A stretch of DNA of 28,832 nucleotides from a virus, in IMG/VR virus record IMGVR_UViG_3300045988_064919, positions 1 to 28,832 of that record. One strand, written 5' to 3'. Positions within the stretch are counted from its first letter, which is position 1. The number at the start of each line of letters is the position of its first letter. The position numbers and the translations under genes are program-made. Positions 3,355 to 28,832 of this stretch are shown one piece after another. The notes beneath the pieces are model-generated. The model saw only the letters and a list, made by a program, of their open reading frames with translations. It made no database searches and had not been told where the DNA came from.

Positions 3355-3837
3355 ATGATTAATGTAGCAGTAATAGCAGGACATCTAACAAAAGATGTTG
3401 AACTATCAAAAACACATAACGGAAATAGCGTAGCAAAGTTTACGGTAGCAGTAAATGGAATTAATGATAATACAGATTTTATTAATTGTGTAGCATGGAA
3501 TAAATTAGCAGATATTGTAAATATGTATTGCAAGAAAGGTGATTTAGTTACAGTCGAAGGAAGAATTAGTGTTAGAAATTATGAGAATCAACAAGGACAG
3601 AAGGTTTATATCACTGAAGTGGTAGCTAATAACGTACAATTGCCGCCTAAAAACGCTTCTAATGGGCAGAATTACAATTCTAATATAAATACATATCAAC
3701 AACCTAATCAAGCATATAACAACACTTACGGCGTTCAAAACACATATACGCAACCAAGTTTGACACAACAAATTGCACAACAAGAATATAACGATGGAAG
3801 TGGTCTACAGATTGCTTCAGATGATTTGCCATTCTAG
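3355..3837 (+). CDS. ssb: Single-stranded DNA-binding protein
   Basis: OB-fold N-terminus MINVAVIAGHLTKDVEL...FTVAV...FINCVAWNKLAD, Q/N-rich linker, acidic tail SDDLPF. Confidence 0.9.
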   Translation: MINVAVIAGHLTKDVELSKTHNGNSVAKFTVAVNGINDNTDFINCVAWNKLADIVNMYCKKGDLVTVEGRISVRNYENQQGQKVYITEVVANNVQLPPKNASNGQNYNSNINTYQQPNQAYNNTYGVQNTYTQPSLTQQIAQQEYNDGSGLQIASDDLPF

Positions 3838-3849
3838 GAGGTGGTTTTA

Positions 3850-4044
3850 ATAGAAATGAATTACGAAGAAATTATTAAAGAGTTAATTTCTAAAAGCAAT
3901 AGACTAGGAAGGAAGAATATTGAATTGGAGCAGACTTTAAAAGAAAGAAACGCAAAAATTCATAATCAAGCTAAAGAAATCAAGAAATTAAGAAGTGAAG
4001 TTGGCGAATTAAAAGATAGATTGTATAGGGTATACAGTTCATGA
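3850..4044 (+). CDS. Small coiled-coil protein (start ambiguous: GTG 3841, ATA 3850 or ATG 3856)
   Basis: AGGAGGTGG at 3836-3844. GTG lies inside the SD, ATA is at good spacing, ATG is 12-15 nt away. Ends in an ATGA overlap with the next gene. Confidence 0.5.
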   Translation: MEMNYEEIIKELISKSNRLGRKNIELEQTLKERNAKIHNQAKEIKKLRSEVGELKDRLYRVYSS

Positions 4045-4367
4045 GCACGTATGAAGATATTAAGAGACACTTTTTGTGTGAATGTCAATCTTATACATAT
4101 TATGAGCAAAAGATAGCAGAGCTACAAAGGGATGAAGCAATTTATCCTTTAAAAGCCGAGCTATTCATAGCTCATGCAGATTATGCAAGAAGAATGAACT
4201 ACGTAAAAGACAAATTAAGCCAACTTGATGATACAACTCGAACAATGATTGAGTATAGATATATAAAAGGATTCAGTGCAGAAAAGACATCTAATATTGT
4301 AGGTTATGCAAGAGAAGAAATCCCAAGAAAGATAAACAAGAATTTAAAGAAAGTGCTCACAATGTGA
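4041..4367 (+). CDS. Sigma-70 region-4-like late transcription regulator (ArpU/RinA-like)
   Basis: Sits just upstream of the packaging module. C-terminal MIEYRYIKGFSAEKTSNIVGYAREEIPRKINKNLKKV resembles a sigma region-4 HTH. Confidence 0.5.
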   Translation: MSTYEDIKRHFLCECQSYTYYEQKIAELQRDEAIYPLKAELFIAHADYARRMNYVKDKLSQLDDTTRTMIEYRYIKGFSAEKTSNIVGYAREEIPRKINKNLKKVLTM

Positions 4368-4376
4368 GCATTTTTT
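4354..4376 (+). terminator. Rho-independent terminator overlapping the regulator stop codon
   Basis: TGCTCACA-A-TGTGAGCA followed by TTTTTT. Confidence 0.6.
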
Positions 4377-4378
4377 CA

Positions 4379-4387
4379 TGTAATAAT
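4379..4387 (+). promoter_or_regulatory. Extended -10 promoter (TGTAATAAT) for the tRNA
   Basis: TGn + AATAAT. The hexamer ends 7 nt before position 4394, which is tRNA nucleotide 1. Confidence 0.4.
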
Positions 4388-4393
4388 TGTTTT

Positions 4394-4469
4394 AGCAGGA
4401 TAGAGCAGTAGTAGCTCACTAGTCTTATTAGCTAGAGGCCGAATGGTGCAAATCCTTCTCCTGCAACCA
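4394..4469 (+). tRNA. tRNA-like gene, anticodon UAU (decodes AUA), initiator-type features, non-canonical elbow
   Basis: Hand-folded cloverleaf. Acceptor AGCAGGA/TCCTGCA (A1xA72 mismatch), UA, D arm GAGC-AGTAGTA-GCTC, anticodon arm CTAGT-CTTATTA-GCTAG, variable AGGCC, T arm GAA(T)GG-TGCAAAT-CCTTC, then A73 and CCA. Confidence 0.7.
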
Positions 4470-4552
4470 TGTTTACAAAGCCTATGAGCAAGTCCTTTTC
4501 GAATTAGATATTAAATACCAACAATGGCATATTATTAGGCTTTGATATATTA

Positions 4553-4576
4553 CCGAGCGTTTGTCTCGGTTCTTTT
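4553..4576 (+). terminator. Rho-independent terminator downstream of the tRNA
   Basis: CCGAG-CGTTTGT-CTCGG followed by TTCTTTT. Confidence 0.65.
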
Positions 4577-4594: not shown

Positions 4595-4840
4595 ATGGGT
4601 TCAAAAGAATTTCAAGAATTAGCAATGAATGCAGTATTTCAAGTGAATCCAAATATTGCAATCAGTGAAATGTTCGTTGTATGAATGGTTAAAGTGCTTC
4701 AAAACAATAAAGCATTGATTAGTGCTCAAAGCACAGACAATTACTATGAGGTAACGTATAACGGCGATAAAAAGGAATTATACGTTGATGAATACATCAA
4801 GAATACAAATACTTGTCTAAATGTAAATGACGCTCTATGA
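4595..4840 (+). CDS. DUF6275-like protein interrupted by an in-frame TGA (4682-4684)
   Basis: ATG after AAGGAGG. Reads ...ISEMFVV*MVKVLQNNKALISAQSTDNYYEVTYNGDKKELYVDEYIK. From memory, homologues read VVW at the stop position. Confidence 0.5.
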
Positions 4841-4860
4841 GTTTAAAAAAAGGGGATAAA

Positions 4861-5841
4861 ATGGAGATTATTAGATTAAATATCAATGACATTACACCTT
4901 ATGAAAAGAACGCAAAGATTCATACTGAAACACAAATTGAACAAATTAAGAAATCTATTCAAGAATTTGGTATGAATGACCCAATTGCAGTATGGGTAAA
5001 AACAATACCATAGTTGAAGGTCATGAAAGATTAGAAGCCTTAAAGCAATTAGGCTATATATCAGTTGACTGTATCAGACTAGACCATTTGACAGATGAAG
5101 AAAGAAAAGCTTATACACTTGCTCATAATAAAATCAATATGAATACAGGATTCGACAAAGGAAAGCTTGTTGCAGATGATGACTATATAGAATTGTTGAA
5201 AGGCTGTAATTGTGTAGTGCAAATAAGCATGGTTTGTTCAAAATACGACAAAATAGAAAAAGGATGTCCAACTTTTGAAGAAAGACTCCAAATATTAGAA
5301 AAGGTTTCTAATAACGTAAAAAGAACAATTGTAAGAGTGCAACCATATATGCATGAAGTATATAAACAATTTAGAAAGATTCAAGAAAGCAGGGGCTTAT
5401 GGTGTAATCATTGAAGGAATGAAATTCAAAAAGAAAAAAAATGGATTAGTTAAGGTGGCCGGTGATTTTACATATCCTTACAATTTAATATTAAATGATT
5501 TCTTAGCGCTAAAGAAAAGGGCTCATGAGCTTGGTTTAAAGATTTATGCAGGAGAGAATAGAATCAGACCATACGGAGATTCTCTTACTTGTTGTGGCAT
5601 TGATGGATTAGATGGATTTACACCAAACGTTTATAACCTTAATCATATGCTTAACGGAGACATTCAGAAGCCTTCACAAGCAATGTTAGAGCCTAAAACC
5701 GGTAAACCATTTAATGGATTGCAACAAAATTCAATCAAAGGAAGATGGTATCGACAACATTCATTTGAGGAAAGTATGAAGCAATATTATTTAACAAATA
5801 AGCGTAACGTAGAAATCATATTTGGTGTTAAACATGAATAA
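4861..5841 (+). pseudogene. ParB-like nuclease-domain protein fused to a radical-SAM/SPL-like barrel region, split over three frames
   Basis: MEIIRLNINDITPYEKNAKIHTETQIEQIKKSIQEFGMNDPIAVW, then the frame breaks at GGG 4994-4996. It continues GKNNTIVEGHERLEALKQLGY (ORF 4992..5414). A second frame change at about 5335-5414 leads into ORF 5353..5841. Confidence 0.55.
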
Positions 5842-5989
5842 GCAAATACAATTATATAAGCAAAAAATGAAACAAATATATGAAGAAGCACAGACTACAA
5901 CAGGATATAGGAAAAAAGACCTTATGCGTAAATATAGAAAAATGCAAAAGGAGTTATCAGATTGCATGATGTATTTTAAAAAGAGGTGA
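5834..5989 (+). CDS. Small basic hypothetical protein
   Basis: 51-aa ATG ORF. Its TGA (5987-5989) is in the same frame as TerS. Confidence 0.35.
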   Translation: MNKQIQLYKQKMKQIYEEAQTTTGYRKKDLMRKYRKMQKELSDCMMYFKKR

Positions 5990-5995
5990 TATAAA

Positions 5996-6364
5996 ATAGC
6001 AAGAAAAAAAATTATTAATCAAAAACAGTTTGAAGCTTTATGTGAAATTCAATGTACAAAAGATGAAATCTGTTCTGTGTTAGATGTATCGGACAAAACA
6101 TTAGACAGATGGTGTAAAGAAACATATAAAGCGTCATTCTCCGAAATTTTCAGGCAAAAAAGACAAGGAGGATGCGCAAGCCTAAGAGCAAAGCAGTGGA
6201 AATTAGCTTCTAAAAGCCCTGCTATGGCTATTTTCTTAGGTAAACAATTCTTAGGGCAAACAGATAAGGTAGAAACACATTTTGACGCTTCAGAAGTAAA
6301 TGCAATTAATAAAGCTATGATTACAGATGTAGCAAAAGAAAGAAGAATTGAAGACTTTGAATAA
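5996..6364 (+). CDS. terS: Terminase small subunit, apparent ATA start
   Basis: AGAGGTGA (5982-5989) + 6 nt + ATA GCA AGA AAA AAA (MARKK). QKQFEALCEIQCTKDEICSVLDVSDKTLDRWCKE...AMAIFLGKQFLGQ is typical TerS. The first canonical in-frame start is GTG 6077, with no SD. Confidence 0.75.
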   Translation: MARKKIINQKQFEALCEIQCTKDEICSVLDVSDKTLDRWCKETYKASFSEIFRQKRQGGCASLRAKQWKLASKSPAMAIFLGKQFLGQTDKVETHFDASEVNAINKAMITDVAKERRIEDFE

Positions 6365-7682
6365 GCCTGCGCCTTTCAATCAAAAACAATTAACTTATCT
6401 TAAAAGAACATTTGATTCATGGCTTAATGTTTTAGAAGGTGGAAAACGTGGAGGAAAGAACGTACTGAACACGTACGCATTCTGCGTTGCATTAGAAACA
6501 CATCCGGATAAGTTCCATTTGATAGCAGGAACGGATACATCATCTGCACGTGTAAATATTGGAGATTGTAATGGATACGGATTGCAGAACTATTTTGCTA
6601 ATAGATTCAAGGTAGGGAAGTATGAAGGTAAAGATTGCTACTACATCAATACAAAGGTAGGGGAAAAGGTTGTATTCTTTGCCGGTGGTGCTAAAAAAGG
6701 CTCAGAGAATGCAATACATGGTTATTCATACGGAATGGCATACGTCACAGAAGCAAACCTTTGTTGTATAGAGTTCTTACAAGAAGTGATGGATAGAACG
6801 ATAGCGTCAAGCGATAGAAAAATATTTCATGATTTAAACCCCAAAGGAAAGAATCATTGGTATTACACAGATTTCTTGAAATATCATGAGGAGCAACAGA
6901 ATAAAGATTCTACATATGGTTATAACTATGGGCATACAACCTTAGTTGACAATTATTCTTTAAGTGATGAGCAGATAAGAACGGTCTTGAAATCATACGA
7001 TAAGAATAGCGTTTATTACAAAAGAGATATAAAAGGGCAAAGGGAAGAAGCCGAAGGACTTGTGTTCCCTTATTTTGCTAATAACTGCAAACCTTATTTA
7101 TTCAAGTATCAGAGTCTAAAAAGAAAGATGAATGAAACAGGAAAAAGGTTCAGTCATTTAATCATTGGAGTTGACTTTGGAGACAATGGCTCGAAATATT
7201 CATGGCATTTAACAGGGTTTACAAATGATTGGGATTATATGTGGGCACTTGATGAAGGAGACATGGCAAAGTCAAATGCAATAGACGCAACAAAGTTCTG
7301 CAAAGCATTTGTAAGGTTCTATAAGCGTTGTATTGAATGTTACGGGTATGTAGAATGGATATTTTGCGATAGTGCTTCTAATACGCTAATAAACACGCTT
7401 AGAGCTTATTATTACGCCGAAGGATTAGACGGAAGTATAATTGCACCTGTCAAGAAGAATGAGCTTACAGACCGTCCTATAACGGTTGATAGCTTACTTG
7501 TTACAGGAAGATTGAAGATAGAAGAACATTGTAAGAATTTAATAAACGCATTAAGCGAATTGGTATGGGATGAAAAGAAAGATATTCCCAAAGATGAGAA
7601 CGTAAACAATATCAATGATGATTGGGATTCGTTCTGCTATACATTTATAACCCATAGTGGATATATAGATTTAAGGAGGTAA
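6348..7682 (+). CDS. terL: Terminase large subunit (PBSX/XtmB type)
   Basis: 444 aa. Walker-A-like LEGGKRGGKN, nuclease-half motifs (VDFGDN..., FCDSA). Sits between TerS and portal. Confidence 0.85.
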   Translation: MKTLNKPAPFNQKQLTYLKRTFDSWLNVLEGGKRGGKNVLNTYAFCVALETHPDKFHLIAGTDTSSARVNIGDCNGYGLQNYFANRFKVGKYEGKDCYYINTKVGEKVVFFAGGAKKGSENAIHGYSYGMAYVTEANLCCIEFLQEVMDRTIASSDRKIFHDLNPKGKNHWYYTDFLKYHEEQQNKDSTYGYNYGHTTLVDNYSLSDEQIRTVLKSYDKNSVYYKRDIKGQREEAEGLVFPYFANNCKPYLFKYQSLKRKMNETGKRFSHLIIGVDFGDNGSKYSWHLTGFTNDWDYMWALDEGDMAKSNAIDATKFCKAFVRFYKRCIECYGYVEWIFCDSASNTLINTLRAYYYAEGLDGSIIAPVKKNELTDRPITVDSLLVTGRLKIEEHCKNLINALSELVWDEKKDIPKDENVNNINDDWDSFCYTFITHSGYIDLRR

Positions 7683-7685
7683 GAA

Positions 7686-9089
7686 ATAGAAACATCTAAC
7701 ACACGTAGACCGTGGTTTCAGAATTACCTTAACGAAAGAGGGTATTATGTAGACACAAACGCAATTGAGATTATTGAATTGTGTAATAAGTGGTATACAA
7801 ATACCGAAACAGAATTTCATACGGCATATACCTTGAACAATGAGGAATACACGTTAGACAAAGCAGACTTTGCGAAACGTTTATGCGAAGATGACGCAAA
7901 CCTTATTGAAATCCTAGATATAAACGCAACAGATGATAGCGTTACAAATGACATTATTTCGGATATTCTAAACAAGAATAGATTTGATGTAATGTACAGG
8001 AAACAAGTTGAGCAGATGTCTGCAAATGGTACGGTAGGAGCTTATGTGACGGTATCAAATGCCGAGATTTACGAAGATGGTTCATTTAGTGGAGGAGAAA
8101 TCAAAATCAACTATTGTGATTCAATGAATATCCTTCCATTAACTGTTATCAATGATGAAATAGTTGAGGTAGCTTTCGTTGGGGTAAATTACGAAAAATT
8201 AAAAAAAGTATATGTCATGGTCATGTTCTTAAAAGGACAAGACGAAAGATATATTGCAGAAACACATTACTTTAAAGATACAGGCGAAGAAATAAAAGAC
8301 CGTGCTCAGATTGTTCAATTAGATGTTGTAAAGCCGTTTGCAATCATGAGAAATGCAAAGGTTAACAACTTACAAATGCAAGGGTACGGTTTGCCGAAGA
8401 TTTGGAGTGCAATTGCTCCTTTGAAAACAATTGATTTAACAATGACAATGTGGAATAGAGATTTGTTAAAATCCGATAAAATTGTTCTTGTGAATGAAGC
8501 ATTAATGCAGAAAGACGAGAATGGAAAGATTAAGATGAATCCACAAATGAAAAAGATATTCGTTCAGTTAGGCAGAGATAAGCTTCCGGAAGAAAAAGCT
8601 TTATGGCAGGAATACAATCCAACAGTTAGAACGGCAGAGGTTGTTCAGTCACTAGAAACGGCGTTAAGTATCTTATCAATGATGTTTGGATTCGGCACGA
8701 AGAAATACACCTTTGAAAGTGGAAGAATCGTGACGGCTACAGAATATATCGGTGAGAATCAAGACGCAATGAAAGAAGTGAATTCACAACGTAAAGAGTC
8801 TACTGCATATATTAAAGATATCATTCAAGCAATAGCGTACTTCTACGAATTAACACAAGGCAGAAAGCTTAATATCAATTCATTAGACATTTCGATTGAT
8901 TATGACGATACATATATTGAGGACAAGCAAAGCACTGCAGAATCGTTAAGAAATGACGCATTAACATTTGATATTCCAAGATTAAAGATTATGTATTTCA
9001 TGAAGCAATATGGATTCACAGAAGAAGAAGCTACAGAATTGTTGAATGAAGAAATTCAAGATGATGGAGAGGGGGATGAAGAAGAATAG
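7686..9089 (+). CDS. Portal protein (SPP1 Gp6-like), apparent ATA start
   Basis: AAGGAGGT (7673-7680) + 5 nt + ATA GAA ACA. The frame opens at 7683. The first canonical start is TTG 7779, 31 codons downstream, with no SD. Size and position fit a portal; acidic C-terminus. Confidence 0.75.
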   Translation: METSNTRRPWFQNYLNERGYYVDTNAIEIIELCNKWYTNTETEFHTAYTLNNEEYTLDKADFAKRLCEDDANLIEILDINATDDSVTNDIISDILNKNRFDVMYRKQVEQMSANGTVGAYVTVSNAEIYEDGSFSGGEIKINYCDSMNILPLTVINDEIVEVAFVGVNYEKLKKVYVMVMFLKGQDERYIAETHYFKDTGEEIKDRAQIVQLDVVKPFAIMRNAKVNNLQMQGYGLPKIWSAIAPLKTIDLTMTMWNRDLLKSDKIVLVNEALMQKDENGKIKMNPQMKKIFVQLGRDKLPEEKALWQEYNPTVRTAEVVQSLETALSILSMMFGFGTKKYTFESGRIVTATEYIGENQDAMKEVNSQRKESTAYIKDIIQAIAYFYELTQGRKLNINSLDISIDYDDTYIEDKQSTAESLRNDALTFDIPRLKIMYFMKQYGFTEEEATELLNEEIQDDGEGDEEE

Positions 9090-9892
9090 CAACTACATAT
9101 TTTCCGTTCGTATCAAGGAGCGGTGATAGATTAGTATTATATGATGCATTCAGAAGATTGTTTTCAAGCTATTTCACGAATGGTGTATTCATAGATGATT
9201 CTAGTTCAGACCATTTACGAGTTGTTAAAGCTCAAGGATTGACATTAACGGTTAAAGCAGGGAGAGCGAATATTAATGGAGCATTCTATTGGCAGAAAGA
9301 TGACGAAACCATCACACTAAAAAAGAATAGCGCTACTAAAAGCTACAATATTATTCTTAGATTGAATGATAATGACGCATACAGAAACATCACCTTAGTA
9401 GCAAGTGATATTAATGATGGAATCACAAGAAGTTATTCTATTTATGATTTAGTGTTGGCTACGGTTACAGTGACAGGCAATGCAAGTGAAATTAAAGGTT
9501 CAGATATTACAGATACAAGATTAGATTCAACACGTTGTGGAGCAGTTACGAGCGCTATTAAGAGCGTACAATCGTTGGATTTATTCACTCAAGTAACGGA
9601 GCTATTCAAGGAAATTAAGGCTCAGAATGAATCTGAAATGAATGCAAATAGAACAGAGTTCAACGATTGGTTTAAAACTGTAAAAGATACATTGGATGAG
9701 AATACGGCAGGAAAGCTATCGAACAGAATTTCAAATATTGAAAATATGATTATGGAGAATCATTTCACTACGATTCTATTAACAGAAGATGGAACACTAG
9801 TGGATGAGAGCGGTCATGAAATTCTAGCCGATTGGGCGTATGAAGTCGAATCCGGTGAAGTAGGTACCGATTGGACTTACAAGGTGAAATAG
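9086..9892 (+). CDS. Fibre/baseplate-associated structural protein (N-terminal MATTYFPF...GDR family), apparent ATA start overlapping the portal TAG
   Basis: GGAGAGGGGGA (9066-9076) then ATA GCA ACT ACA TAT TTT CCG. The ATAG overlap makes the A at 9088 the middle base of the portal stop. The first canonical start is TTG 9158. Confidence 0.55.
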   Translation: MATTYFPFVSRSGDRLVLYDAFRRLFSSYFTNGVFIDDSSSDHLRVVKAQGLTLTVKAGRANINGAFYWQKDDETITLKKNSATKSYNIILRLNDNDAYRNITLVASDINDGITRSYSIYDLVLATVTVTGNASEIKGSDITDTRLDSTRCGAVTSAIKSVQSLDLFTQVTELFKEIKAQNESEMNANRTEFNDWFKTVKDTLDENTAGKLSNRISNIENMIMENHFTTILLTEDGTLVDESGHEILADWAYEVESGEVGTDWTYKVK

Positions 9893-13816: not shown

Positions 13817-14686
13817 ATACCAAATGAAATTGCATTAGCTAAAACGTATGTCTCAAATTTGGATGAGGTATATAAGTCAGCTTCAGTTACAGGTGATTTA
13901 AATGCAGACGCTACAATGGTAAGAGCAGGAGCAAATGCAAAAGAAATCATCTATCCACAAATTTCTGTTAACGGTTTAGGAAACTACGATAGAAACAGTG
14001 GCTATACAGGTAACTCAGTTAAGTTAGAATGGAAAACTGCTACATTCGACTATGATAGAGGAACTAAAATCTCTGTTGATACTCAAGACAATGCAGAATC
14101 AATGAATATTGCATTCGGTAGGGCAGGAGCGGAATTAATGCGAACAAAGGTAGCGCCGGAAGCGGACGCTTACACATTCGCTAAAATTGCAAGCACAACA
14201 GGAATCACAAAGGTTTCAGAAGATTATACAGGTGCAGAAGAATTCTTGAGCGCATTGTTAACGGCTATCACTAAAATGGATGAGGATGAAGTTCCTAGCG
14301 AACAACGTATCTTGTATTCAACACCAACATTATTAAATAGCGTTAAGGCGTTGGACACTTACAAATCTCGTGAAGCTTTACAAGGATTTGCAAAGGTTGT
14401 TCCTGTACCTGCTAGCCGTTTCTATACAAAAATCAAATTGTTGAGTGGAAAAGATACAGAGTTAGAAGGCGGATACGAAAAAGCGGAGGATGGACACGTA
14501 ATCAACTTCTTGATTGTTTACAAACCTGCCGTTATGAAATGGGATAAACACACCGTTTCAAATGTAATTCCGGCAAGCAATAACATTGAATCAGATTCAG
14601 ATGTATTGAAATATCGTAAGTATGGAATCGTTGACGTATACCAAAATAAGGTAGCAGGTATTTACTTATCTGCTAGTGCTAAGTAA
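13817..14686 (+). CDS. Major capsid protein, apparent ATA start
   Basis: AAGGAGG (13801-13807) + 9 nt + ATA CCA AAT GAA. The frame opens at 13814. The first canonical start is TTG 13859, with no SD. N-terminus ...YVSNLDEVYKSASVTGDL and the position after the scaffold gene fit a capsid protein. Confidence 0.7.
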   Translation: MPNEIALAKTYVSNLDEVYKSASVTGDLNADATMVRAGANAKEIIYPQISVNGLGNYDRNSGYTGNSVKLEWKTATFDYDRGTKISVDTQDNAESMNIAFGRAGAELMRTKVAPEADAYTFAKIASTTGITKVSEDYTGAEEFLSALLTAITKMDEDEVPSEQRILYSTPTLLNSVKALDTYKSREALQGFAKVVPVPASRFYTKIKLLSGKDTELEGGYEKAEDGHVINFLIVYKPAVMKWDKHTVSNVIPASNNIESDSDVLKYRKYGIVDVYQNKVAGIYLSASAK

Positions 14687-17815: not shown

Positions 17816-20395
17816 ATATCGGACGGAACATTAAAGTTTGATACAAAGATTGATACAAGTGGTCTAGAGAATGGTATTAAATCTGTAAAGGTTGTATCAA
17901 ATGAAGCTACAAATGAAATCAAGGAAACTTCAAAAGCAATTGATAAGCTAGGTTCTGATGGTTCAAAAGCACCACCAAAGATTACTGATGAATTAAGAAA
18001 GCTAAATGATGAGCAAAAGAATACACAAACAGAAACGCAAGAAACAGGTTCAAAGTTTGATGTCTTTAAGCAAGTAGGAAACAGTGCATTAGATTCGATT
18101 CAAGGTGGATTTGATGGATTACTAGATAAGATTCAGAATATTAGTCCGGAAGCAACTACAATCACTGAAACCTTGACAGGATTAGGAGTTGGAGGTGTTG
18201 TAGGTGTTACTGCCGTAGCAGGAGCTATCGGTGGAATGGCATTAGCAATTAAGACAGGTGTCAATCAAGCTACTGAATTAGATGACGCTATGGCTAAATT
18301 CCAAGCTCAGACAGGTGCTTCAAGCAATGAAATGAGCAAATTTAAAAACATTGCTCGTGATGTTTGGTCTAATAATTTTGGTGAAGATATTTCAGATGTT
18401 GCCGATATGATGGCACGTGTCAAGCAACAAATGCAAGGCATAAGTGATGTCGATTTAAAGGATGTTACTGAGGATTTATTGACATTAAGAGACACATTCG
18501 GAATGGACGAGAACGAAACATTAAGAGGTGCTCAACAATTAATGAAGCAGTTCGGAATTAGTTCTAAAGAAGCTTTTGACCTTATGGCTACAGGTGCTCA
18601 GAATGGTTTAAACAAATCAGATGAGTTAGGCGACAACATTTCAGAATACTCCGGTAAATTCAAGCAAGCAGGATATTCGGCAGAAGAATACTTCCAATTA
18701 ATGCAGAATGGATTAGATGGTGGAGCTTATAACCTTGATAAAGTTAACGACGCAATCAATGAAGTTACCACAAGGTTAGTTGATGGAAATATCGAAGGAG
18801 CTTTAGATAGTTTCGATACAAAGACGCAAGATGTATTCAAGGCATGGCAAGAAGGAAGAAAAACTCAGAAAGATGTTGTGAATGCGATTGTAGAAGATAT
18901 TTCAAGAACTACAAATCAACAAGAGAAGTTGAATAAAACGGCAACGGCTTTCGGTACAATGGGAGAAGATTTTAACGCCGGATTTATTGAATCCTTAACT
19001 ACGGTAGGAAATAAATATAAAGATGTAGAAGGAGCAATGGATAAAGTCAAAGAAATTGCAAATGGTGGCTTAAAGAACGCTTTAAGTGGCTTAGGACGTG
19101 CATTTCTTGATTCATTTACTCCAATAGGCGAACTTATTACCCCTATTCTTGCAGGTATCATTGGATTGATTACATTAGCTATACAAGGTATTCAACAAGG
19201 GTTTGCAAAAGTTGGTGATGTAATTTCAAATGTATTGAGTAAGATTGATACAAGTGGAATTACAGAATTGACAAGTCAAGTTTCTGAAGTGTTAGCTCCT
19301 GCGTTTAAAGAAGTAAAAAAAGCAATTGACGAAATGGAAGTTGCGCTTGAACCTATCGCAAAAGAAATCTTAGGTAAAATTGGTAGCGCAATTCAAAATG
19401 TTGTTAACCAAGCTCAAAAGATTCTTAGCGTTATAGGACCACCAATTCTAGCAATCATTAAGAAGATTATTCAAACGGTAGTTAGCATGATTCCTGTAAT
19501 AACATCTATCCTTCAAGTTGTTGGAAGTGTGGTAAGTGGAACCATTTCATTTATAACTATGGTTGTGACATATGTTGGGACTGCGATTGCGACAATACTA
19601 GGATTTATCATGCCTATTGTTCAAATTGTAGCTACAATCGTAGCGAATATTTGGTATGTAATATTAACGGTTGCTCAGAATATTTGGAGCAAAGTTAGTG
19701 AAGTAGTTATTGCGATTATTGGATTCGTAAACAATTTATTTAAGACGGTTTCGGATATCATAAACAATATTTGGAGCAAGATTCAAGATACAATGAACAG
19801 AGTCGGCGATAAAGTTAAAGGTGTTATTGATAATATCAATAAATATTTCAATGATGTTAAGAGTACTGTTTCTGATGTATTCAATGGCATTTGGTCTAAG
19901 GTTCAAGGTGTGATGGACAATGTAGGAAATAAAATTTCAAATGTTCTACAAGGAATACAGAATTCATGGAATGGCTTGACATGGTTTGTAAGTGGCGTAT
20001 TTAGCGGAATTGAAGGAGCAGTTAGTTCATTAGTTGGAAGCGTAAAAGGAATGGTAAATGGTGTTATCGGTGGCATTAACGGTGCAATCGGTATCATCAA
20101 CAAGATTCCCGGAGTGCATATTGGAAGGATTCCAAAATTAGAGCGTGGTGGTGTATTGAAGCGCGGTCAAGTTGGTTTACTTGAAGGTAATGGAGCAGAA
20201 GCAGTTGTACCTTTAGAAAGAAACAAAGCGTGGATTCGTGCCGTAGCTAAAGATATGGCTCAAATCATGCCAAGCGTTACAACGAATAACAACGGACAAA
20301 CAATTAACTTCTATAATAAAGCTCAAAGTCCGGATGAAATCGCTAGAATGTTGCGAATGCAAGCAAGATATGGATATGGAGGTGTAGTTCAATAG
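17816..20395 (+). CDS. Tape measure protein, apparent ATA start
   Basis: AAGGAGGTGG (17798-17807) + 8 nt + ATA TCG GAC GGA. ATA is the first codon after an in-frame TGA. 119 sense codons follow before the first canonical start (TTG 18173). Long helical/TM-rich body. Confidence 0.8.
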   Translation: MSDGTLKFDTKIDTSGLENGIKSVKVVSNEATNEIKETSKAIDKLGSDGSKAPPKITDELRKLNDEQKNTQTETQETGSKFDVFKQVGNSALDSIQGGFDGLLDKIQNISPEATTITETLTGLGVGGVVGVTAVAGAIGGMALAIKTGVNQATELDDAMAKFQAQTGASSNEMSKFKNIARDVWSNNFGEDISDVADMMARVKQQMQGISDVDLKDVTEDLLTLRDTFGMDENETLRGAQQLMKQFGISSKEAFDLMATGAQNGLNKSDELGDNISEYSGKFKQAGYSAEEYFQLMQNGLDGGAYNLDKVNDAINEVTTRLVDGNIEGALDSFDTKTQDVFKAWQEGRKTQKDVVNAIVEDISRTTNQQEKLNKTATAFGTMGEDFNAGFIESLTTVGNKYKDVEGAMDKVKEIANGGLKNALSGLGRAFLDSFTPIGELITPILAGIIGLITLAIQGIQQGFAKVGDVISNVLSKIDTSGITELTSQVSEVLAPAFKEVKKAIDEMEVALEPIAKEILGKIGSAIQNVVNQAQKILSVIGPPILAIIKKIIQTVVSMIPVITSILQVVGSVVSGTISFITMVVTYVGTAIATILGFIMPIVQIVATIVANIWYVILTVAQNIWSKVSEVVIAIIGFVNNLFKTVSDIINNIWSKIQDTMNRVGDKVKGVIDNINKYFNDVKSTVSDVFNGIWSKVQGVMDNVGNKISNVLQGIQNSWNGLTWFVSGVFSGIEGAVSSLVGSVKGMVNGVIGGINGAIGIINKIPGVHIGRIPKLERGGVLKRGQVGLLEGNGAEAVVPLERNKAWIRAVAKDMAQIMPSVTTNNNGQTINFYNKAQSPDEIARMLRMQARYGYGGVVQ

Positions 20396-21261
20396 ATTTA
20401 AATAAAGTTAGAATCATTGTCCGTAGGGATGATAGCAAAGAATTTGAAATCGACAACAAAAGATGGAGAATACCATCTAGTGACGGATTAGATGGATTTG
20501 ATTATGCAACACCTTCATATACTACGCAAGACAACGCATTCGGAAATGGTGCTAGATTAATCGGTTCACGTATTCCAACGAAAGAAAGAAGCGTGAAAGC
20601 TATCTTTAAGGGCGCACTAGAAGAAAAAAGAGAAGAAAGGGAGAAGCTACGGCGCTTCTTCCAATATTCTCATGTCTTTGATGTAATAGTTGAGTATATG
20701 GGAGAAAAGAAATATTGCAGAGGTCGTTTGTATGCTTATAGCTTACCCACTGTTAACATTTATAAAGATTTAGAGCTTAATTTCACGATTCTATGTACGC
20801 AACCTTTATTGCTTTCATATGATGATTTCGCAAGGAATATTGCAGAAATTGGCGAAGGTTTAGCGTTCAATTTTGAAATACCGGAAACAGGCGTAAACTT
20901 TGGAACATTTACATTCGCTAGAGAAATCTATATTGATAATCAAGGCGATACAGAAACATACTGTAGAGCCGTTATTGAAGCGTTTGGAGAGGTAACAAAT
21001 CCGAAACTATTCAATAAAGATAAATATATTCGTGTATTAGATACGCTACACAATGGTGATGTGTTAGAAATTGATTTAGTTTCAGAACCTATTTCGATTA
21101 AAAAGAATGGTGTGAATTGTATCGGCAAAGTTGACAGAACATCATCATTCAATGATATGACGATTCAGTTAGGCGAGAATATCATAGGATATACTGCCGA
21201 CAATGGAGATACGAATCTAGCTTGCACCGTTTACTATAATGAAAGGTATTTAGGTTTATAA
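20392..21261 (+). CDS. Distal tail protein (Dit), apparent ATA start overlapping the tape-measure TAG
   Basis: GGAGGTG (20378-20384) + 7 nt + ATA GAT TTA. The ATAG overlap shares bases with the TMP stop. 67 codons precede the first canonical start (GTG 20593). Confidence 0.65.
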   Translation: MDLNKVRIIVRRDDSKEFEIDNKRWRIPSSDGLDGFDYATPSYTTQDNAFGNGARLIGSRIPTKERSVKAIFKGALEEKREEREKLRRFFQYSHVFDVIVEYMGEKKYCRGRLYAYSLPTVNIYKDLELNFTILCTQPLLLSYDDFARNIAEIGEGLAFNFEIPETGVNFGTFTFAREIYIDNQGDTETYCRAVIEAFGEVTNPKLFNKDKYIRVLDTLHNGDVLEIDLVSEPISIKKNGVNCIGKVDRTSSFNDMTIQLGENIIGYTADNGDTNLACTVYYNERYLGL

Positions 21262-22971: not shown

Positions 22972-23733
22972 ATAAATTATCAAAGTTTTAAAGAAGCCGT
23001 ATTAGGCAAAGTATTCGACATTGACGGATACTATGGTGCTCAATGTTGGGACGGATTCGCAAAGTACATGATTGACTTAGGATATCAAGCTATCAATTGC
23101 ACGACAAGTGGTTTTGTTAAAGACATTTGGAACAATCGAAAAACAAATGGTATCTTGAATTATTGCAATGAGGTATCAATCATGCAACCGGGAGACATTG
23201 CAGTTTTTAAAGAAGTAGCAGGAATTACGCCATACAGTCATATCGCAATCTTTGATTCTGATATTGACGGAAAGCAAGGATGGTTCTTGGGTCAAAACCA
23301 AGGTGGAAAAGGTGGAGCATTCAATTTAATTAAATTGCCTTATTATGCAATCTTTGATACTGCGTTTAGACCTAAATGTTTCGCAAATGCAGGAGCAGTT
23401 AAACCAAGTATTCCACAACCTGTAGAAGCGATTGACCAAATTTTGCATTCAGGAAGCTATGTAACATCCGTACAAATGAAGATTGGCAATCAAGGATTGA
23501 AACAAATCAATAGCGATTTATGCGCATACCTTGAACAATTAGGTGGTTGGTTTCCAATTCGTCTGGTTGATAAAGTTCGTAATTCTGATGGTTACAATGA
23601 CAATGTATTGCATACAACAAATGCGATTGTCTATGTTACAAGAATTCGCGTTGATGAAGTCGACGTACAAAAGAACCTTGCGAAAATCGGTGAAATTTGG
23701 GTAAATTGTGGCCCATTAATTGAAGTGGCATAA
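22972..23733 (+). CDS. Endolysin: N-terminal CHAP domain plus C-terminal wall-binding region, apparent ATA start
   Basis: AAAGGAGGG (22957-22965) + 6 nt + ATA AAT TAT CAA. The TTG 22948 of the track lies inside the -10 box and upstream of the SD. CHAP motifs GYYGAQCWDGF and SHIAIF. Confidence 0.75.
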   Translation: MNYQSFKEAVLGKVFDIDGYYGAQCWDGFAKYMIDLGYQAINCTTSGFVKDIWNNRKTNGILNYCNEVSIMQPGDIAVFKEVAGITPYSHIAIFDSDIDGKQGWFLGQNQGGKGGAFNLIKLPYYAIFDTAFRPKCFANAGAVKPSIPQPVEAIDQILHSGSYVTSVQMKIGNQGLKQINSDLCAYLEQLGGWFPIRLVDKVRNSDGYNDNVLHTTNAIVYVTRIRVDEVDVQKNLAKIGEIWVNCGPLIEVA

Positions 23734-25308: not shown

Positions 25309-25575
25309 ATGACAAACGAAGAAATTATCCAAAATGAAAAAAAGGTACTAGGAATGGGAGAATTTGAACCACTGCACACTTTCCAAAAATGGGAAGAAAT
25401 GGGGTTCAAAGTTAAGAAAGGTGAGCATGCAGTAACTTGTACAAAGTTATGGAAACCTAAAGCAAAGAAGTATACAGATACAAACGGAGAAGAAAAAGTT
25501 GAAAACAATTTCTTCTTAGCAAAAGCTTACTTATTCAAATCGAATCAAGTTGAAAGAATAGCTCCTACAAATTAG
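25309..25575 (+). CDS. Small ArdC-N-like (DUF1738-like) ssDNA-binding / anti-restriction-like protein
   Basis: ATG after GTGGAGG. HTFQKWEEMGFKVKKGEHAV resembles the ArdC N-domain motif (TF.QW...G..V.KGEK). First early gene. Confidence 0.4.
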   Translation: MTNEEIIQNEKKVLGMGEFEPLHTFQKWEEMGFKVKKGEHAVTCTKLWKPKAKKYTDTNGEEKVENNFFLAKAYLFKSNQVERIAPTN

Positions 25576-27703: not shown

Positions 27704-28239
27704 AAACAAAGTTGATAGGTAATTTCATCCGAAAATCAAGAAATGAAGATGGAAACTTAGAAATAACATTTGAATTAACTGAGCCAATATACGAAACATA
27801 CGCTCAGACGCTCGAAAAAGGGGCATATAGCGTGATTATAGATTCGGTTAACCATTTACGTACGAATGAACAAAATCGGCTTATGTGGAAGCTTATAAAG
27901 GATATATGTGAGAACGAAAACGCTAGTTGTAACGATACATGGGATATGTATTGCGAGTTCTTGAGAATGGCTAAAGCATTATATACATATGTTTCAGTTT
28001 TGAAAGATGGTGTTGATTCGTTGGCTCAAGCACATGGAGTTAGAGCGGTGCAAATATTGGGTACTGAGGTTAGAGACAATGGAAATGAATTTGTGAATTG
28101 TAGATTGTTTCTAGGTAGCTCACAAATGGACACGAAACAAATGGGAGTATTAATTGATTGCATATTAGATTATGCAGAACAATTAGGAATCAGTACTCAA
28201 TATTATTTAGATAAAGGAATCAAGGGGGAAGAAAAATAA
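27700..28239 (+). CDS. NinB/Orf-like (putative HNHc_6-type) recombination-associated protein
   Basis: LRTNEQNRLMWKLIKDI resembles the RS..QN..lW motif. Position fits the recombination module. Confidence 0.45.
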   Translation: MKTKLIGNFIRKSRNEDGNLEITFELTEPIYETYAQTLEKGAYSVIIDSVNHLRTNEQNRLMWKLIKDICENENASCNDTWDMYCEFLRMAKALYTYVSVLKDGVDSLAQAHGVRAVQILGTEVRDNGNEFVNCRLFLGSSQMDTKQMGVLIDCILDYAEQLGISTQYYLDKGIKGEEK

Positions 28240-28616
28240 AATTTGTAATTAAAGGAAAGCTTGATGGATTGAATGAATATATTAATGCTTGCAGAACGAA
28301 TCGTTACAAAGGAGCAGAAATGAAGAAAAAGAATGAACGATTAGTTATGGCTTATATCTTACAGGCAGTAAACTTTGGTGAAGTTTACGAAGTTAAGAAC
28401 TATCCAATTAAATTAAATATTAATTGGTATGAGCCGAACAACAAAAGAGATATAGACAATATCACATTCGCTACTAAATTCATTCAAGATTCATTAGTTA
28501 GAACAGGAATTCTAGAGGATGATTCAAGAAAATACATTAATCAAGTGAATCATTCAGTATTTACAGATAAACAGAACTCAAGGATAGAAGTAGAAATTCT
28601 AGGCGGAGGTGATTAG
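28236..28616 (+). CDS. RusA-like Holliday junction resolvase, apparent ATA start
   Basis: AAGGGGGA (28222-28229) + 6 nt + ATA AAA TTT GTA ATT AAA GGA ([24 protein letters not shown]). ATAA overlap with the preceding stop. C-terminal [26 protein letters not shown] fits the RusA motif. Confidence 0.6.
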
Positions 28617-28617
28617 A

Positions 28618-28832
28618 ATAGCAGAACTAAAGAAATCGTATTACGCAATAATACCTGCAGAAGTTCGATATGATGAAGAATTGCCACCAAACGCAAAACT
28701 ATTGTATGGAGAAATTACATCATTGTGTAATGAAAAAGAATATTGTTGGGCAACAAATCAATATTTCGCAGATTTATATAAAGTTTCTAAAATTACAGTA
28801 AGTAGATGGATTAGCGCTCTATACAAAAAAGG
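28618..28832 (+). CDS. Replisome organizer, N-terminal part (runs off the window; continues at 100..652), apparent ATA start
   Basis: GGAGGTG (28605-28611) + 6 nt + ATA GCA GAA ([37 protein letters not shown]). GTG 28609 lies inside the SD. Confidence 0.6.
28734..28832. repeat. Terminal redundancy: identical to 1..99
   Basis: Read directly. Confidence 0.95.

Follow-up and report, generated by a model that had tools for sequence, protein, structure and literature searches.

Here, we describe a tRNA gene at positions 4394-4469 (plus strand) of a phage genome segment, IMG/VR record IMGVR_UViG_3300045988_064919, whose 28,832 analysed nucleotides we call the window; the segment is siphovirus-type, with roughly 33% GC. 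The tRNA combines the body of a bacterial initiator tRNA with the anticodon UAU, and from its sequence and those of its relatives we consider it highly likely that it is a phage-encoded initiator that reads AUA start codons, with the base before them, as a four-base A-AUA signal. The computational tests that were run all speak for an AUA initiator and against both an elongator tRNA-Ile and a pseudogene. A sequence-only reading of the window had put forward an AUA-decoding initiator as a candidate, and this proposal has gained in strength from five results: a 1:72 mismatch in 16/16 tRNA variants, BLAST matches of the tRNAfMet type, the co-occurrence of the tRNA with ATA starts, a natural negative control (the contig L144), and the agreement between nucleotide (nt) 37 of the tRNA and base -1 of the message.

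The tRNA gene and its initiator-type body

The Rfam model RF00005 matches 4394-4466 with 48.8 bits (gathering score 29; E 1e-7) and returns the same cloverleaf that had been folded by hand in the sequence-only reading, with A1xA72, A11:U24, UAU, A73 and CCA. The acceptor (AGCAGGA/UCCUGCA) has an A1xA72 mismatch, marked by the model as a non-pair, atop six Watson-Crick pairs, and is followed by U8 A9. The D stem (GAGC/GCUC, giving A11:U24) encloses the loop AGUAGUA, which has no GG, and after a single A comes the anticodon stem CUAGU/GCUAG, with A:U, G:C and U.G at 29:41, 30:40 and 31:39, around the loop CUUAUUA. The variable loop AGGCC, a T arm of the form GAA(U)GG UGCAAAU CCUUC (one inserted, bulged U in the stem; G55 in the loop), the discriminator A73 and an encoded CCA complete the molecule. 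The anticodon U34-A35-U36 lies at 4426-4428 and U37 at 4429 (plus strand), in a loop that is invariant among relatives, and these are the four bases that we propose pair with A-AUA. The minimum free energy fold is essentially the cloverleaf (-20.2 vs -19.5 kcal/mol), and the gene is, as had been stated, the only tRNA of the window, with no other shown by ARAGORN or Rfam.

Two terminators flank the gene where the sequence-only reading had placed them, each consisting of a hairpin and a T-run, at 4354-4376 and 4552-4576 (plus strand). The first (TGCTCAC-AAT-GTGAGCA with TTTTTT), conserved in relatives, ends the gene at 4041-4367, while the second, a terminator-like element found by scan, stands between the tRNA and the first packaging/structural gene. 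The extended -10 that had been described upstream of the tRNA (TGTAATAAT, 4379-4387, plus strand, a match to the consensus only) is present 6 nt before tRNA nucleotide 1 and is kept as TGnNATAAT at that distance across the window's clade; no -35 element was found by the promoter scan. The 82 nt after the tRNA (4470-4551, plus strand) form a conserved trailer with a possible 9-bp closing stem, AAAGCCUA...UAGGCUUU, which shows one compensatory change and two wobble changes (one compensatory pair by RNAalifold). The trailer contains a promoter-like TG-TATATT match at 4524-4551, and may represent either an RNA element transcribed along with the tRNA or the late promoter region. In every lineage a hairpin terminator lies 3' of the tRNA, and in all of them the tRNA lies a short way before TerS and the late operon.

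Relatives of the tRNA were sought in several collections. A TerL-based scan of IMG/VR yielded 45 loci at 97, 64, 58 and 49% TerL identity, and the tRNA was present at each of them that had enough upstream DNA; pattern scans added the lineages L067, L071 and L057, and a metagenome scan added 41 human-gut contigs with the tRNA, for a total of 16 distinct tRNA sequences from about 90 gut-phage contigs. Covariation was measured on a 14-sequence alignment (A1), with 94.6% of its cells paired and compensatory double changes in 8 pairs. The observed percentage of paired cells, the number of cells changed on both sides and the covariation score were reached by 0/500 shuffles, and the count of pairs changed on both sides by 1/500; further pair types were not above the shuffles, and slid controls fell to 36-56% paired. 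The anticodon stem occurs as CUAGU/GCUAG, UCGGU/GCCGA, UUGGU/GCCAA, UCAGU/GCUGA and CCAGU/GCUGG. The element at 4394-4469 is a real tRNA, with a cloverleaf that is under constraint.

Against this changing background several features are fixed: G2:C71, C3:G70, A4:U69, A11:U24, G30:C40, the loop CUUAUUA, A73 and CCA are invariant across the variants, and some relatives also have G29:C41. Positions 1 and 72 are unpaired in 16/16 variants, with A, G or C (never U) at base 1 opposite an invariant A72, and L071 has the canonical C1xA72. Every copy with a mismatched 1:72 also has U37, so that the paired 1:72 and the purine 37 of elongators are both absent. All copies carry UAU in place of the CAU of tRNAfMet, which is the defining difference from that tRNA. 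Judged from these alignments, the initiator hallmarks appear to be under selection. G2:C71, C3:G70 and A73, together with A11:U24 and an unpaired 1:72, are the formylase determinants.

The similarity searches point the same way. A variant of the tRNA, compared by BLAST with 5,426 complete Escherichia coli genomes, had, per genome, a median of four matches with 78% identity; the best match examined is a cluster in which three tRNA-Met genes lie between mltA and amiC, taken by us as the initiator locus metZWV, and no elongator tRNA or tRNA-Ile was matched in these genomes at E up to 10. Among 50,697 phage records the annotated matches were all tRNA-Met genes, from large phages, with some further positions unannotated or annotated as hypothetical protein; no tRNA-Ile was among the annotated matches at E up to 1. 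An alignment with E. coli metZ shows the common frame GAGCAG...GUAGCUCGUCGG.CU.AU.A.CCGAAGGUCG...GGUUCAAAUCC...GCAACCA. The phage tRNA is thus like bacterial tRNAfMet (E. coli metZWV and metY) in the unpaired 1:72, A72, G2:C71, C3:G70, A11:U24, G30:C40, A73 and GCAACCA end, and unlike it in having UAU instead of CAU, U37 instead of A, only the middle G:C pair of the anticodon stem, a U.G at 31:39 and mostly A (or G) at base 1, in the degenerate elbow of the window's clade, and in being encoded by a phage whose genes carry ATA starts.

ATA start codons and the presence of the tRNA

The sequence-only reading had counted ATA at the start of at least nine genes led by a Shine-Dalgarno (SD) site; eight are confirmed (5996, 7686, 9086, 13817, 17816, 20392, 22972 and 28618) and two are possible (3850 and 28236). 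For TerS, the portal, the major head protein and the tape measure, in-frame stops and SD sites leave 1-3 candidate start codons, and the start is ATA in each. All of these genes are on the plus strand. The small terminase TerS (5996-6364; PHROG TerS) begins at an ATA that is the third codon after an in-frame TGA, and the portal (7686-9089; PHROG portal) at one that is the second codon after an in-frame TAA, behind AAGGAGGT. The ATA of the next gene, a head protein (phrog_1220 by PHROG; 9086-9892), overlaps the portal stop as ATAG, and to judge by the PHROG alignment of this protein, about 25 residues precede the first canonical start. The major head protein (13817-14686) has an in-frame TAA two codons upstream, and its residue 3, counted from the ATA, aligns to position 3 of the 297 of phrog_422, in an alignment that runs end to end. 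In the tape measure (17816-20395) ATA is the first codon after an in-frame TGA, and the next canonical start lies 119 codons downstream, while the distal tail protein Dit (20392-21261; PHROG) has an ATA that overlaps the tape-measure stop, again as ATAG. The CHAP endolysin (22972-23733) has a CHAP domain, matches a PHROG endolysin from residue 2 and is preceded by AAGGAGG 7 nt upstream, and an HTH_36 (replication-type) gene with an SD site (28618-28832) runs off the window. The base at -1 is A in TerS, the portal, the major head protein, the endolysin and the HTH_36 gene.

The two possible cases are of a different quality. A RusA-like gene (28236-28616) has an SD site before its ATA, and TTG and ATG codons downstream make this start less certain; in a small gene at 3850-4044 the ATA stands at SD+8 with an in-frame ATG two codons on ('ATA GAA ATG' in about 30 relatives), so that the use of ATA is ambiguous. 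The remaining SD-led genes start with ATG (13-14) or GTG (1-2), and TerL starts at the TTG at 6348. About a third of the phage's genes start with ATA.

The ATAG overlaps at 9086-9089 (portal/head protein) and 20392-20395 (tape measure/Dit) are the ATA analogue of the ATGA overlap and suggest translational coupling. The ATA starts do not serve to lower expression, because they stand on the most abundant late proteins and behind strong SD sites. An artefact of sequencing or base modification that turned ATG into ATA is ruled out by the 14 genes that start with ATG, by internal ATG codons at 22.5 per 1000 and by the conservation of the ATA starts across independent assemblies. A frameshift or fusion as the source of the tape measure N-terminus is likewise ruled out, as the stop, the SD site and 'TGA ATA' are kept down to 40% identity. 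In a contig with an identical copy of the queried protein (Logan ERR1137599; L176), the automatic call starts the major head protein (512-1339) at a downstream TTG, with 275 instead of 289 amino acids, and the tape measure (4826-6507) 119 codons late, with 740 instead of 859; public protein sets of this phage group therefore carry truncated N-termini.

The ATA starts persist in divergent lineages that have the tRNA, at 40-62% protein identity: in the portal at 58% and 56% identity, in the major head protein at 55%, and in the tape measure, where 'TGA ATA' is kept, at 62% and 40%. In TerS the window's ATA aligns to ATG in eight close relatives and to ATA in distant lineages. For comparison we assembled an outgroup of eight loci from a portal-profile scan (43-46% portal identity) and the phage MT837573 (L091). 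ARAGORN, Rfam and the family-specific covariance model R1 all found no tRNA in these nine loci, and the major head protein and the portal have ATG at the same residue at which the ingroup has ATA. Thus the major head protein of L141 reads '...ggagataagtaaaa ATG gca aac gca att', with ATG at aligned residue 1, and the outgroup portal reads 'taggaggagcta ATG'. The TerS of MT837573 begins 'ATG GCA AAG GGA AAG TAT' and that of the tRNA-bearing L071 'ATA GCT AAA GGA AAG TAT'; the TerS of L142 also has ATG.

Counted over whole loci, four tRNA-bearing representatives (21-29 kb) have 9, 7, 6 and 8 ATA starts, against 0-1 in each of the nine outgroup loci. A strict survey, restricted to open reading frames (ORFs) of at least 80 codons with an SD site of at least 6 nt and an in-frame stop within 12 codons, gave the same picture. 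With tRNA(UAU) there were 52 ORFs, of which 29 had canonical starts, 17 ATA, 1 AAG, 0 AGG and 1 CTG; in the outgroup there were 57, of which 44 had canonical starts, 0 ATA, 2 AAG, 0 AGG and 0 CTG. ATA therefore makes up 17/23 of the non-canonical starts in the tRNA-bearing lineages, far beyond chance, and its co-occurrence with the tRNA spans at least four lineages. The survey of related phages that the sequence-only reading had called for, on whether a UAU tRNA and ATA starts go together, hence has a clear answer (17/52 vs 0/57 ORFs).

A homologous tRNA(UAU) in L144 (915-990) makes a further comparison possible. It has a paired U1:A72 and the loop CUUAUAA, with A37, and the eight SD-led ORFs of this contig (in 8.5 kb of its 18.5 kb) all start with ATG or TTG, none with ATA. 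The L144 tRNA looks like an elongator-type relative and a natural negative control.

The proposed start signal, its mechanism and the alternatives

The base before the start codon extends the signal. Position -1 is A in 40/44 distinct ATA-start contexts and in 44/96 ATG starts of the same phages (Fisher p 2e-7), and positions -2 to -6 are without such a bias. This fits a pairing of U37 with the A at -1, which would make the predicted signal A-AUA. A mechanism of this kind has experimental precedent: in E. coli initiator mutants with A37U or A37G, examined on about 45,000 mRNAs, complementarity between nt 37 and base -1 raised translation, and the A37U mutant favoured A at -1 (Hollerer and Jeschek 2023; PMC10018350). 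The pattern in the phages resembles a natural form of this compensatory test.

IMG/VR was scanned for the same initiator frame with other anticodons, and 31 more viral contigs were found (L145-L175; for example L152 5978-6054, L154, L167 and L170), with C1xA72 or G1xA72, A11:U24 and the GCAACCA end. Their anticodons are CUU (with U37), CCU (with A37 or U37), CAG (with U37) and CAC (with A37). In the strict survey the CUU class has 6 AAG starts among 23 ORFs (15 canonical), the CCU class 4 AGG among 18 (13 canonical) and the CAG class 12 CTG among 37 (14 canonical), and the cross-class counts in this table of three classes are zero. The CAC class, which would read GUG, gave no clear start-codon signal. 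Base -1 follows nt 37 across the classes: with U37 it is A in 25/26 (UAU), 6/6 (CUU) and 12/13 (CAG) starts, and with CCU and A37 it is T in 4/4. Coincidence, or reading of these starts by the host initiator, is very unlikely, because a CAU initiator cannot read AAG, AGG or CUG.

Putting the classes together, we think it probable that gut phages carry anticodon-switched initiators with matching rewritten starts (UAU/AUA, CUU/AAG, CCU/AGG and CAG/CUG) and a four-base signal. A private start codon would then occur in nature, encoded by viruses, and would form a new class of code deviation at the level of initiation. The proteins read from such starts would probably begin with a formylated residue other than methionine.

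In light of this, how might the tRNA of the window work? A bacterial tRNA of the tRNAfMet type would have had its anticodon switched from CAU to UAU, and would initiate at AUA behind a strong SD site. The motifs around the gene suggest transcription from its own extended -10 promoter, ending at the terminator before the packaging/structural operon, and covariation indicates that the transcript folds as a cloverleaf. A host synthetase would charge it, with isoleucine through isoleucyl-tRNA synthetase (IleRS) being most likely, because the anticodon dominates both isoleucine and methionine identity, and methionine being possible. The host formyltransferase would then formylate it, as the kept unpaired 1:72, G2:C71, C3:G70 and A11:U24 suggest; IF2 would bring it to the P site of the 30S subunit, and the check by IF3 and 16S rRNA may be passed by means of G30:C40. 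There the tRNA would pair with AUA and U37 with the preceding A, which the covariation of nt 37 and base -1 supports. About a third of the genes, namely those for TerS, the portal, the head protein, the major head protein, the tape measure, Dit and the endolysin along with some early genes, would on this account be translated efficiently only with the phage tRNA. The phage might benefit in one of several ways: through a private channel of initiation, by which these genes would stay silent when not under phage control (in a lysogen, following transfer, or in the face of hijackers), through freedom from the host initiator during a shut-off imposed by host or phage, or through genetic or recombinational isolation from related phages.

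Several observations weigh against this account. A change from C34 to U should abolish recognition by methionyl-tRNA synthetase, and U37 removes t6A37, a positive determinant of IleRS in E. coli. ARAGORN called no tRNA in the window, and so missed the copy at 4394-4469. Of the three G:C pairs that mark the anticodon stem of tRNAfMet only G30:C40 is present, and the U.G (pyrimidine:purine) at 31:39 falls outside the natural and engineered variants of PMC5389676. The elbow in the window's clade is degenerate, with an A18-type D loop, G55 and a bulged or mismatched T stem. Early or replication genes (28618, perhaps 28236 and 3850, and early ones in L018) have ATA starts as well as late genes, which leaves no simple rationale of timing and weakens a simple late-gene switch as an explanation. 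Finally, the SD sites of ATA starts are stronger than those of ATG starts (mean -14.0 vs -8.7 kcal/mol; p 1.6e-4), a comparison that is partly circular in that the ATA starts were found partly through their strong SD sites.

The sequence-only reading had itself listed the missing G:C pairs, U37, the D loop without GG, G55 and the bulged U as caveats, and all are present in the sequence. In E. coli, initiator function is reported to need no more than the middle pair G30:C40, or G30 alone in context (Shetty et al.; PMC5389676), which takes weight from the caveat on the missing G:C pairs, and natural initiators with au/GC/gu occur in mycoplasmas and alpha-proteobacteria (PMC5389676). In the more divergent lineages the D loop has its canonical GG and the T loop its TTC, which confines the odd elbow to the window's clade, in which G18 to A and U55 to G appear to have changed together.

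Among the alternatives, the one that survives best, which we nevertheless regard as unlikely, keeps initiation at A-AUA and adds a second use, either at AUG starts through U34.G wobble or at internal AUA codons through residual binding of EF-Tu. The tRNA would then free the phage from the supply of host initiator and of tRNA-Ile2, for example during shut-off or a defence that targets tRNAs. In principle G can be read by an unmodified U34 through wobble, AUG starts make up about 55-60% of the genes, A stands at -1 in about half of the ATG starts, internal ATA is common, and published work suggests that phage tRNAs can evade nucleases that cut the anticodon loop (PMC10264068). Yet no sequence data demand such a use, no gene for host shut-off or for a tRNA nuclease was recognised in the window, and the 1:72 mismatch speaks against efficient elongation.

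A second alternative takes the tRNA as an elongator tRNA-Ile(UAU) that supplies internal AUA codons, with the ATA starts being weakly read by the host initiator. ARAGORN does label the more canonical relatives tRNA-Ile(tat), internal ATA amounts to 19% of the isoleucine codons in the window, codon supply is the common account of phage tRNAs (PMC10264068), and L144 has an elongator-looking UAU tRNA of the same body. We hold it to be very unlikely, given the unpaired 1:72 in 16/16 variants, whose base 1 takes three forms, U37 in place of the purine of elongators that read ANN codons, A11:U24 rather than Y11:R24, and the absence of any BLAST similarity to tRNA-Ile in the E. coli genomes or the phage database. 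It also leaves unexplained why ATA starts occur only with the mismatched, U37-bearing tRNA, why base -1 is complementary to nt 37, and why CUU, CCU and CAG match AAG, AGG and CUG starts that a host initiator could not read. That the tRNA is a decaying pseudogene or a non-translational tRNA-like element (an integration remnant or a processing signal) whose anticodon matches the starts by coincidence, for which the degenerate elbow and bulged T stem of the window copy, its absence from the ARAGORN calls and a moderate Rfam score might speak, is scarcely credible against a loop and acceptor strictly kept and stems with compensatory changes in about 90 contigs of several lineages, the conserved position, promoter-like element and terminator, the fully canonical T and D loops of divergent lineages, and a match of anticodon and start codon across classes that is not coincidental.

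An AUA initiator with a four-base signal can be set beside several known systems. Anticodon mutants of tRNAfMet have long been made in the laboratory. More recently, engineered initiators such as i-tRNA(AAC) and an amber initiator have put a switched anticodon into the tRNAfMet body and started translation at a non-AUG codon (bioRxiv 10.1101/2021.05.25.445580; PMC11744186). The phage tRNA is like these in its proposed use of a complementary non-AUG codon behind a normal SD site, through a channel orthogonal to the AUG of the host, and unlike these laboratory devices for single reporters in being natural, conserved and co-evolved with about a third of the starts and with base -1. The combination of U37 with A at -1 is like the quadruplet pairing of nt 37 and base -1 in E. 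coli (PMC10018350, and Esposito et al. 2003 in so far as it is cited there), and unlike the modest effect at AUG in that study, the pairing looks near-obligatory for the all-A/U codon of the phage and covaries across classes.

Natural systems offer looser parallels. Some phages recode stop codons with phage-encoded suppressor tRNAs, and here, too, an unusual phage anticodon would alter the reading of a subset of genes and tie their expression to the phage tRNA; unlike suppressor recoding, which acts on stops in elongation, the present case would concern the start codon and initiation and involves no stop reassignment. The anticodon UAU matches no stop codon, and TAA, TAG and TGA all serve as gene ends in the window. 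Elongator tRNA-Ile(UAU) occurs in some Mollicutes and Bacillota, and elongators have a paired 1:72 and A37; the phage tRNA shares the anticodon with these and with L144, and with L144 the overall body, and differs from them in its mismatched 1:72 and U37. Animal mitochondria have a single tRNA-Met, with the anticodon CAU and a modified C34, that serves initiation and elongation and reads AUA starts. As there, an AUA start would be read by a dedicated tRNA, and unlike there, the phage would add a separate gene with a U34 anticodon beside the normal initiator of its host.

In the full-text literature, with most subscription journals outside the coverage, we found no natural phage-encoded initiator tRNA with an anticodon other than CAU and no start-codon switch of this kind. 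An initiator body with a switched anticodon is known from the laboratory, but not as a natural system. If the interpretation is true, then AUG, GUG and UUG with a single host initiator are not universal in the bacterial world, and mobile elements could add a second initiator with its own start signal. It would give a natural counterpart to engineered orthogonal initiation, natural evidence for four-base pairing between initiator and mRNA, and a new level at which phages control their genes or become independent of the host. Gene callers mis-annotate such phages (the major head protein loses 14 and the tape measure 119 residues) and label the tRNA as tRNA-Ile, so that a gene class and a regulatory principle would be hidden in existing databases. 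For engineering, the tRNA, the SD site and the four-base start could be ready-made parts for orthogonal translation in Bacillota.

Neighbouring genes, source and minor observations

The small protein encoded at 4041-4367, before the tRNA, has weak matches to Sigma70_r4 (E 0.008) and to a PHROG transcription regulator (E 8e-4). The tRNA had been described as standing directly between a late regulator and the packaging/structural operon; this location is correct, whereas a linking role for it is weakly supported, as ATA starts also occur in early genes and the regulator matches are weak. The late block runs in the order TerS, TerL, portal, head proteins, scaffold, major head protein, tail genes, tape measure, Dit, Gp37-like tail protein, holin and CHAP endolysin. 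The early genes are those of replication and recombination (SSB, dUTPase, Sak, NinB, RusA and a replisome organiser), and a CI-like repressor is encoded on the minus strand. Among the window's proteins we recognised no phage-encoded translation or shut-off factor and no tRNA nuclease.

The source is the human gut and the host is probably a low-GC member of the Bacillota. No close relative of the window is among the 50,697 deposited phages; a tblastn search with the portal matched only distant Bacillota phages and human faecal contigs, the Pfam domains of the window's proteins are not host-diagnostic, and a contig search for an encoded protein led only to a Logan contig. A metagenome-assembled genome of Methylocucumis (L090, 4098-4166) was considered as a pointer to the host and rejected as a chance match of the tRNA pattern, with no cloverleaf, and the same holds for a metagenome contig (L215, 3318-3386); for both, the family model gives a 16-bit partial match elsewhere in the locus.

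Two genes downstream of the tRNA are broken in the window. The DUF6275 gene (4595-4840) is interrupted by an in-frame TGA at 4682-4684, where all relatives have TGG (Trp). A reassignment of TGA as sense is ruled out, both by the many genes that TGA terminates and by this TGG of the relatives; the interruption at 4682 comes from a nonsense mutation private to the window or from a sequencing error, and does not reflect recoding. At a homopolymer run, a ParB-like nuclease domain is divided between one frame (4837-5013) and a second that overlaps it (4992-5414); 10/13 relatives encode the domain in one frame, which points to a frameshift mutation or an assembly error in the window.

The phage group also shows mosaicism of modules. 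In one group TerL is 63-65% identical to that of the window, and yet the portal, the major head protein and the tRNA are 95-100% identical (L017-L031 vs L001-L016), which implies a recent exchange of the terminase module. A small early protein at 25309-25575 has a match to PF08401, the N-terminal domain of ArdC, an anti-restriction factor (E 1.7e-6). In a relative that has no such tRNA (L135), positions 3697-3743 match the Rfam small RNA family gut-2 with 42.6 bits (gathering score 39.8).

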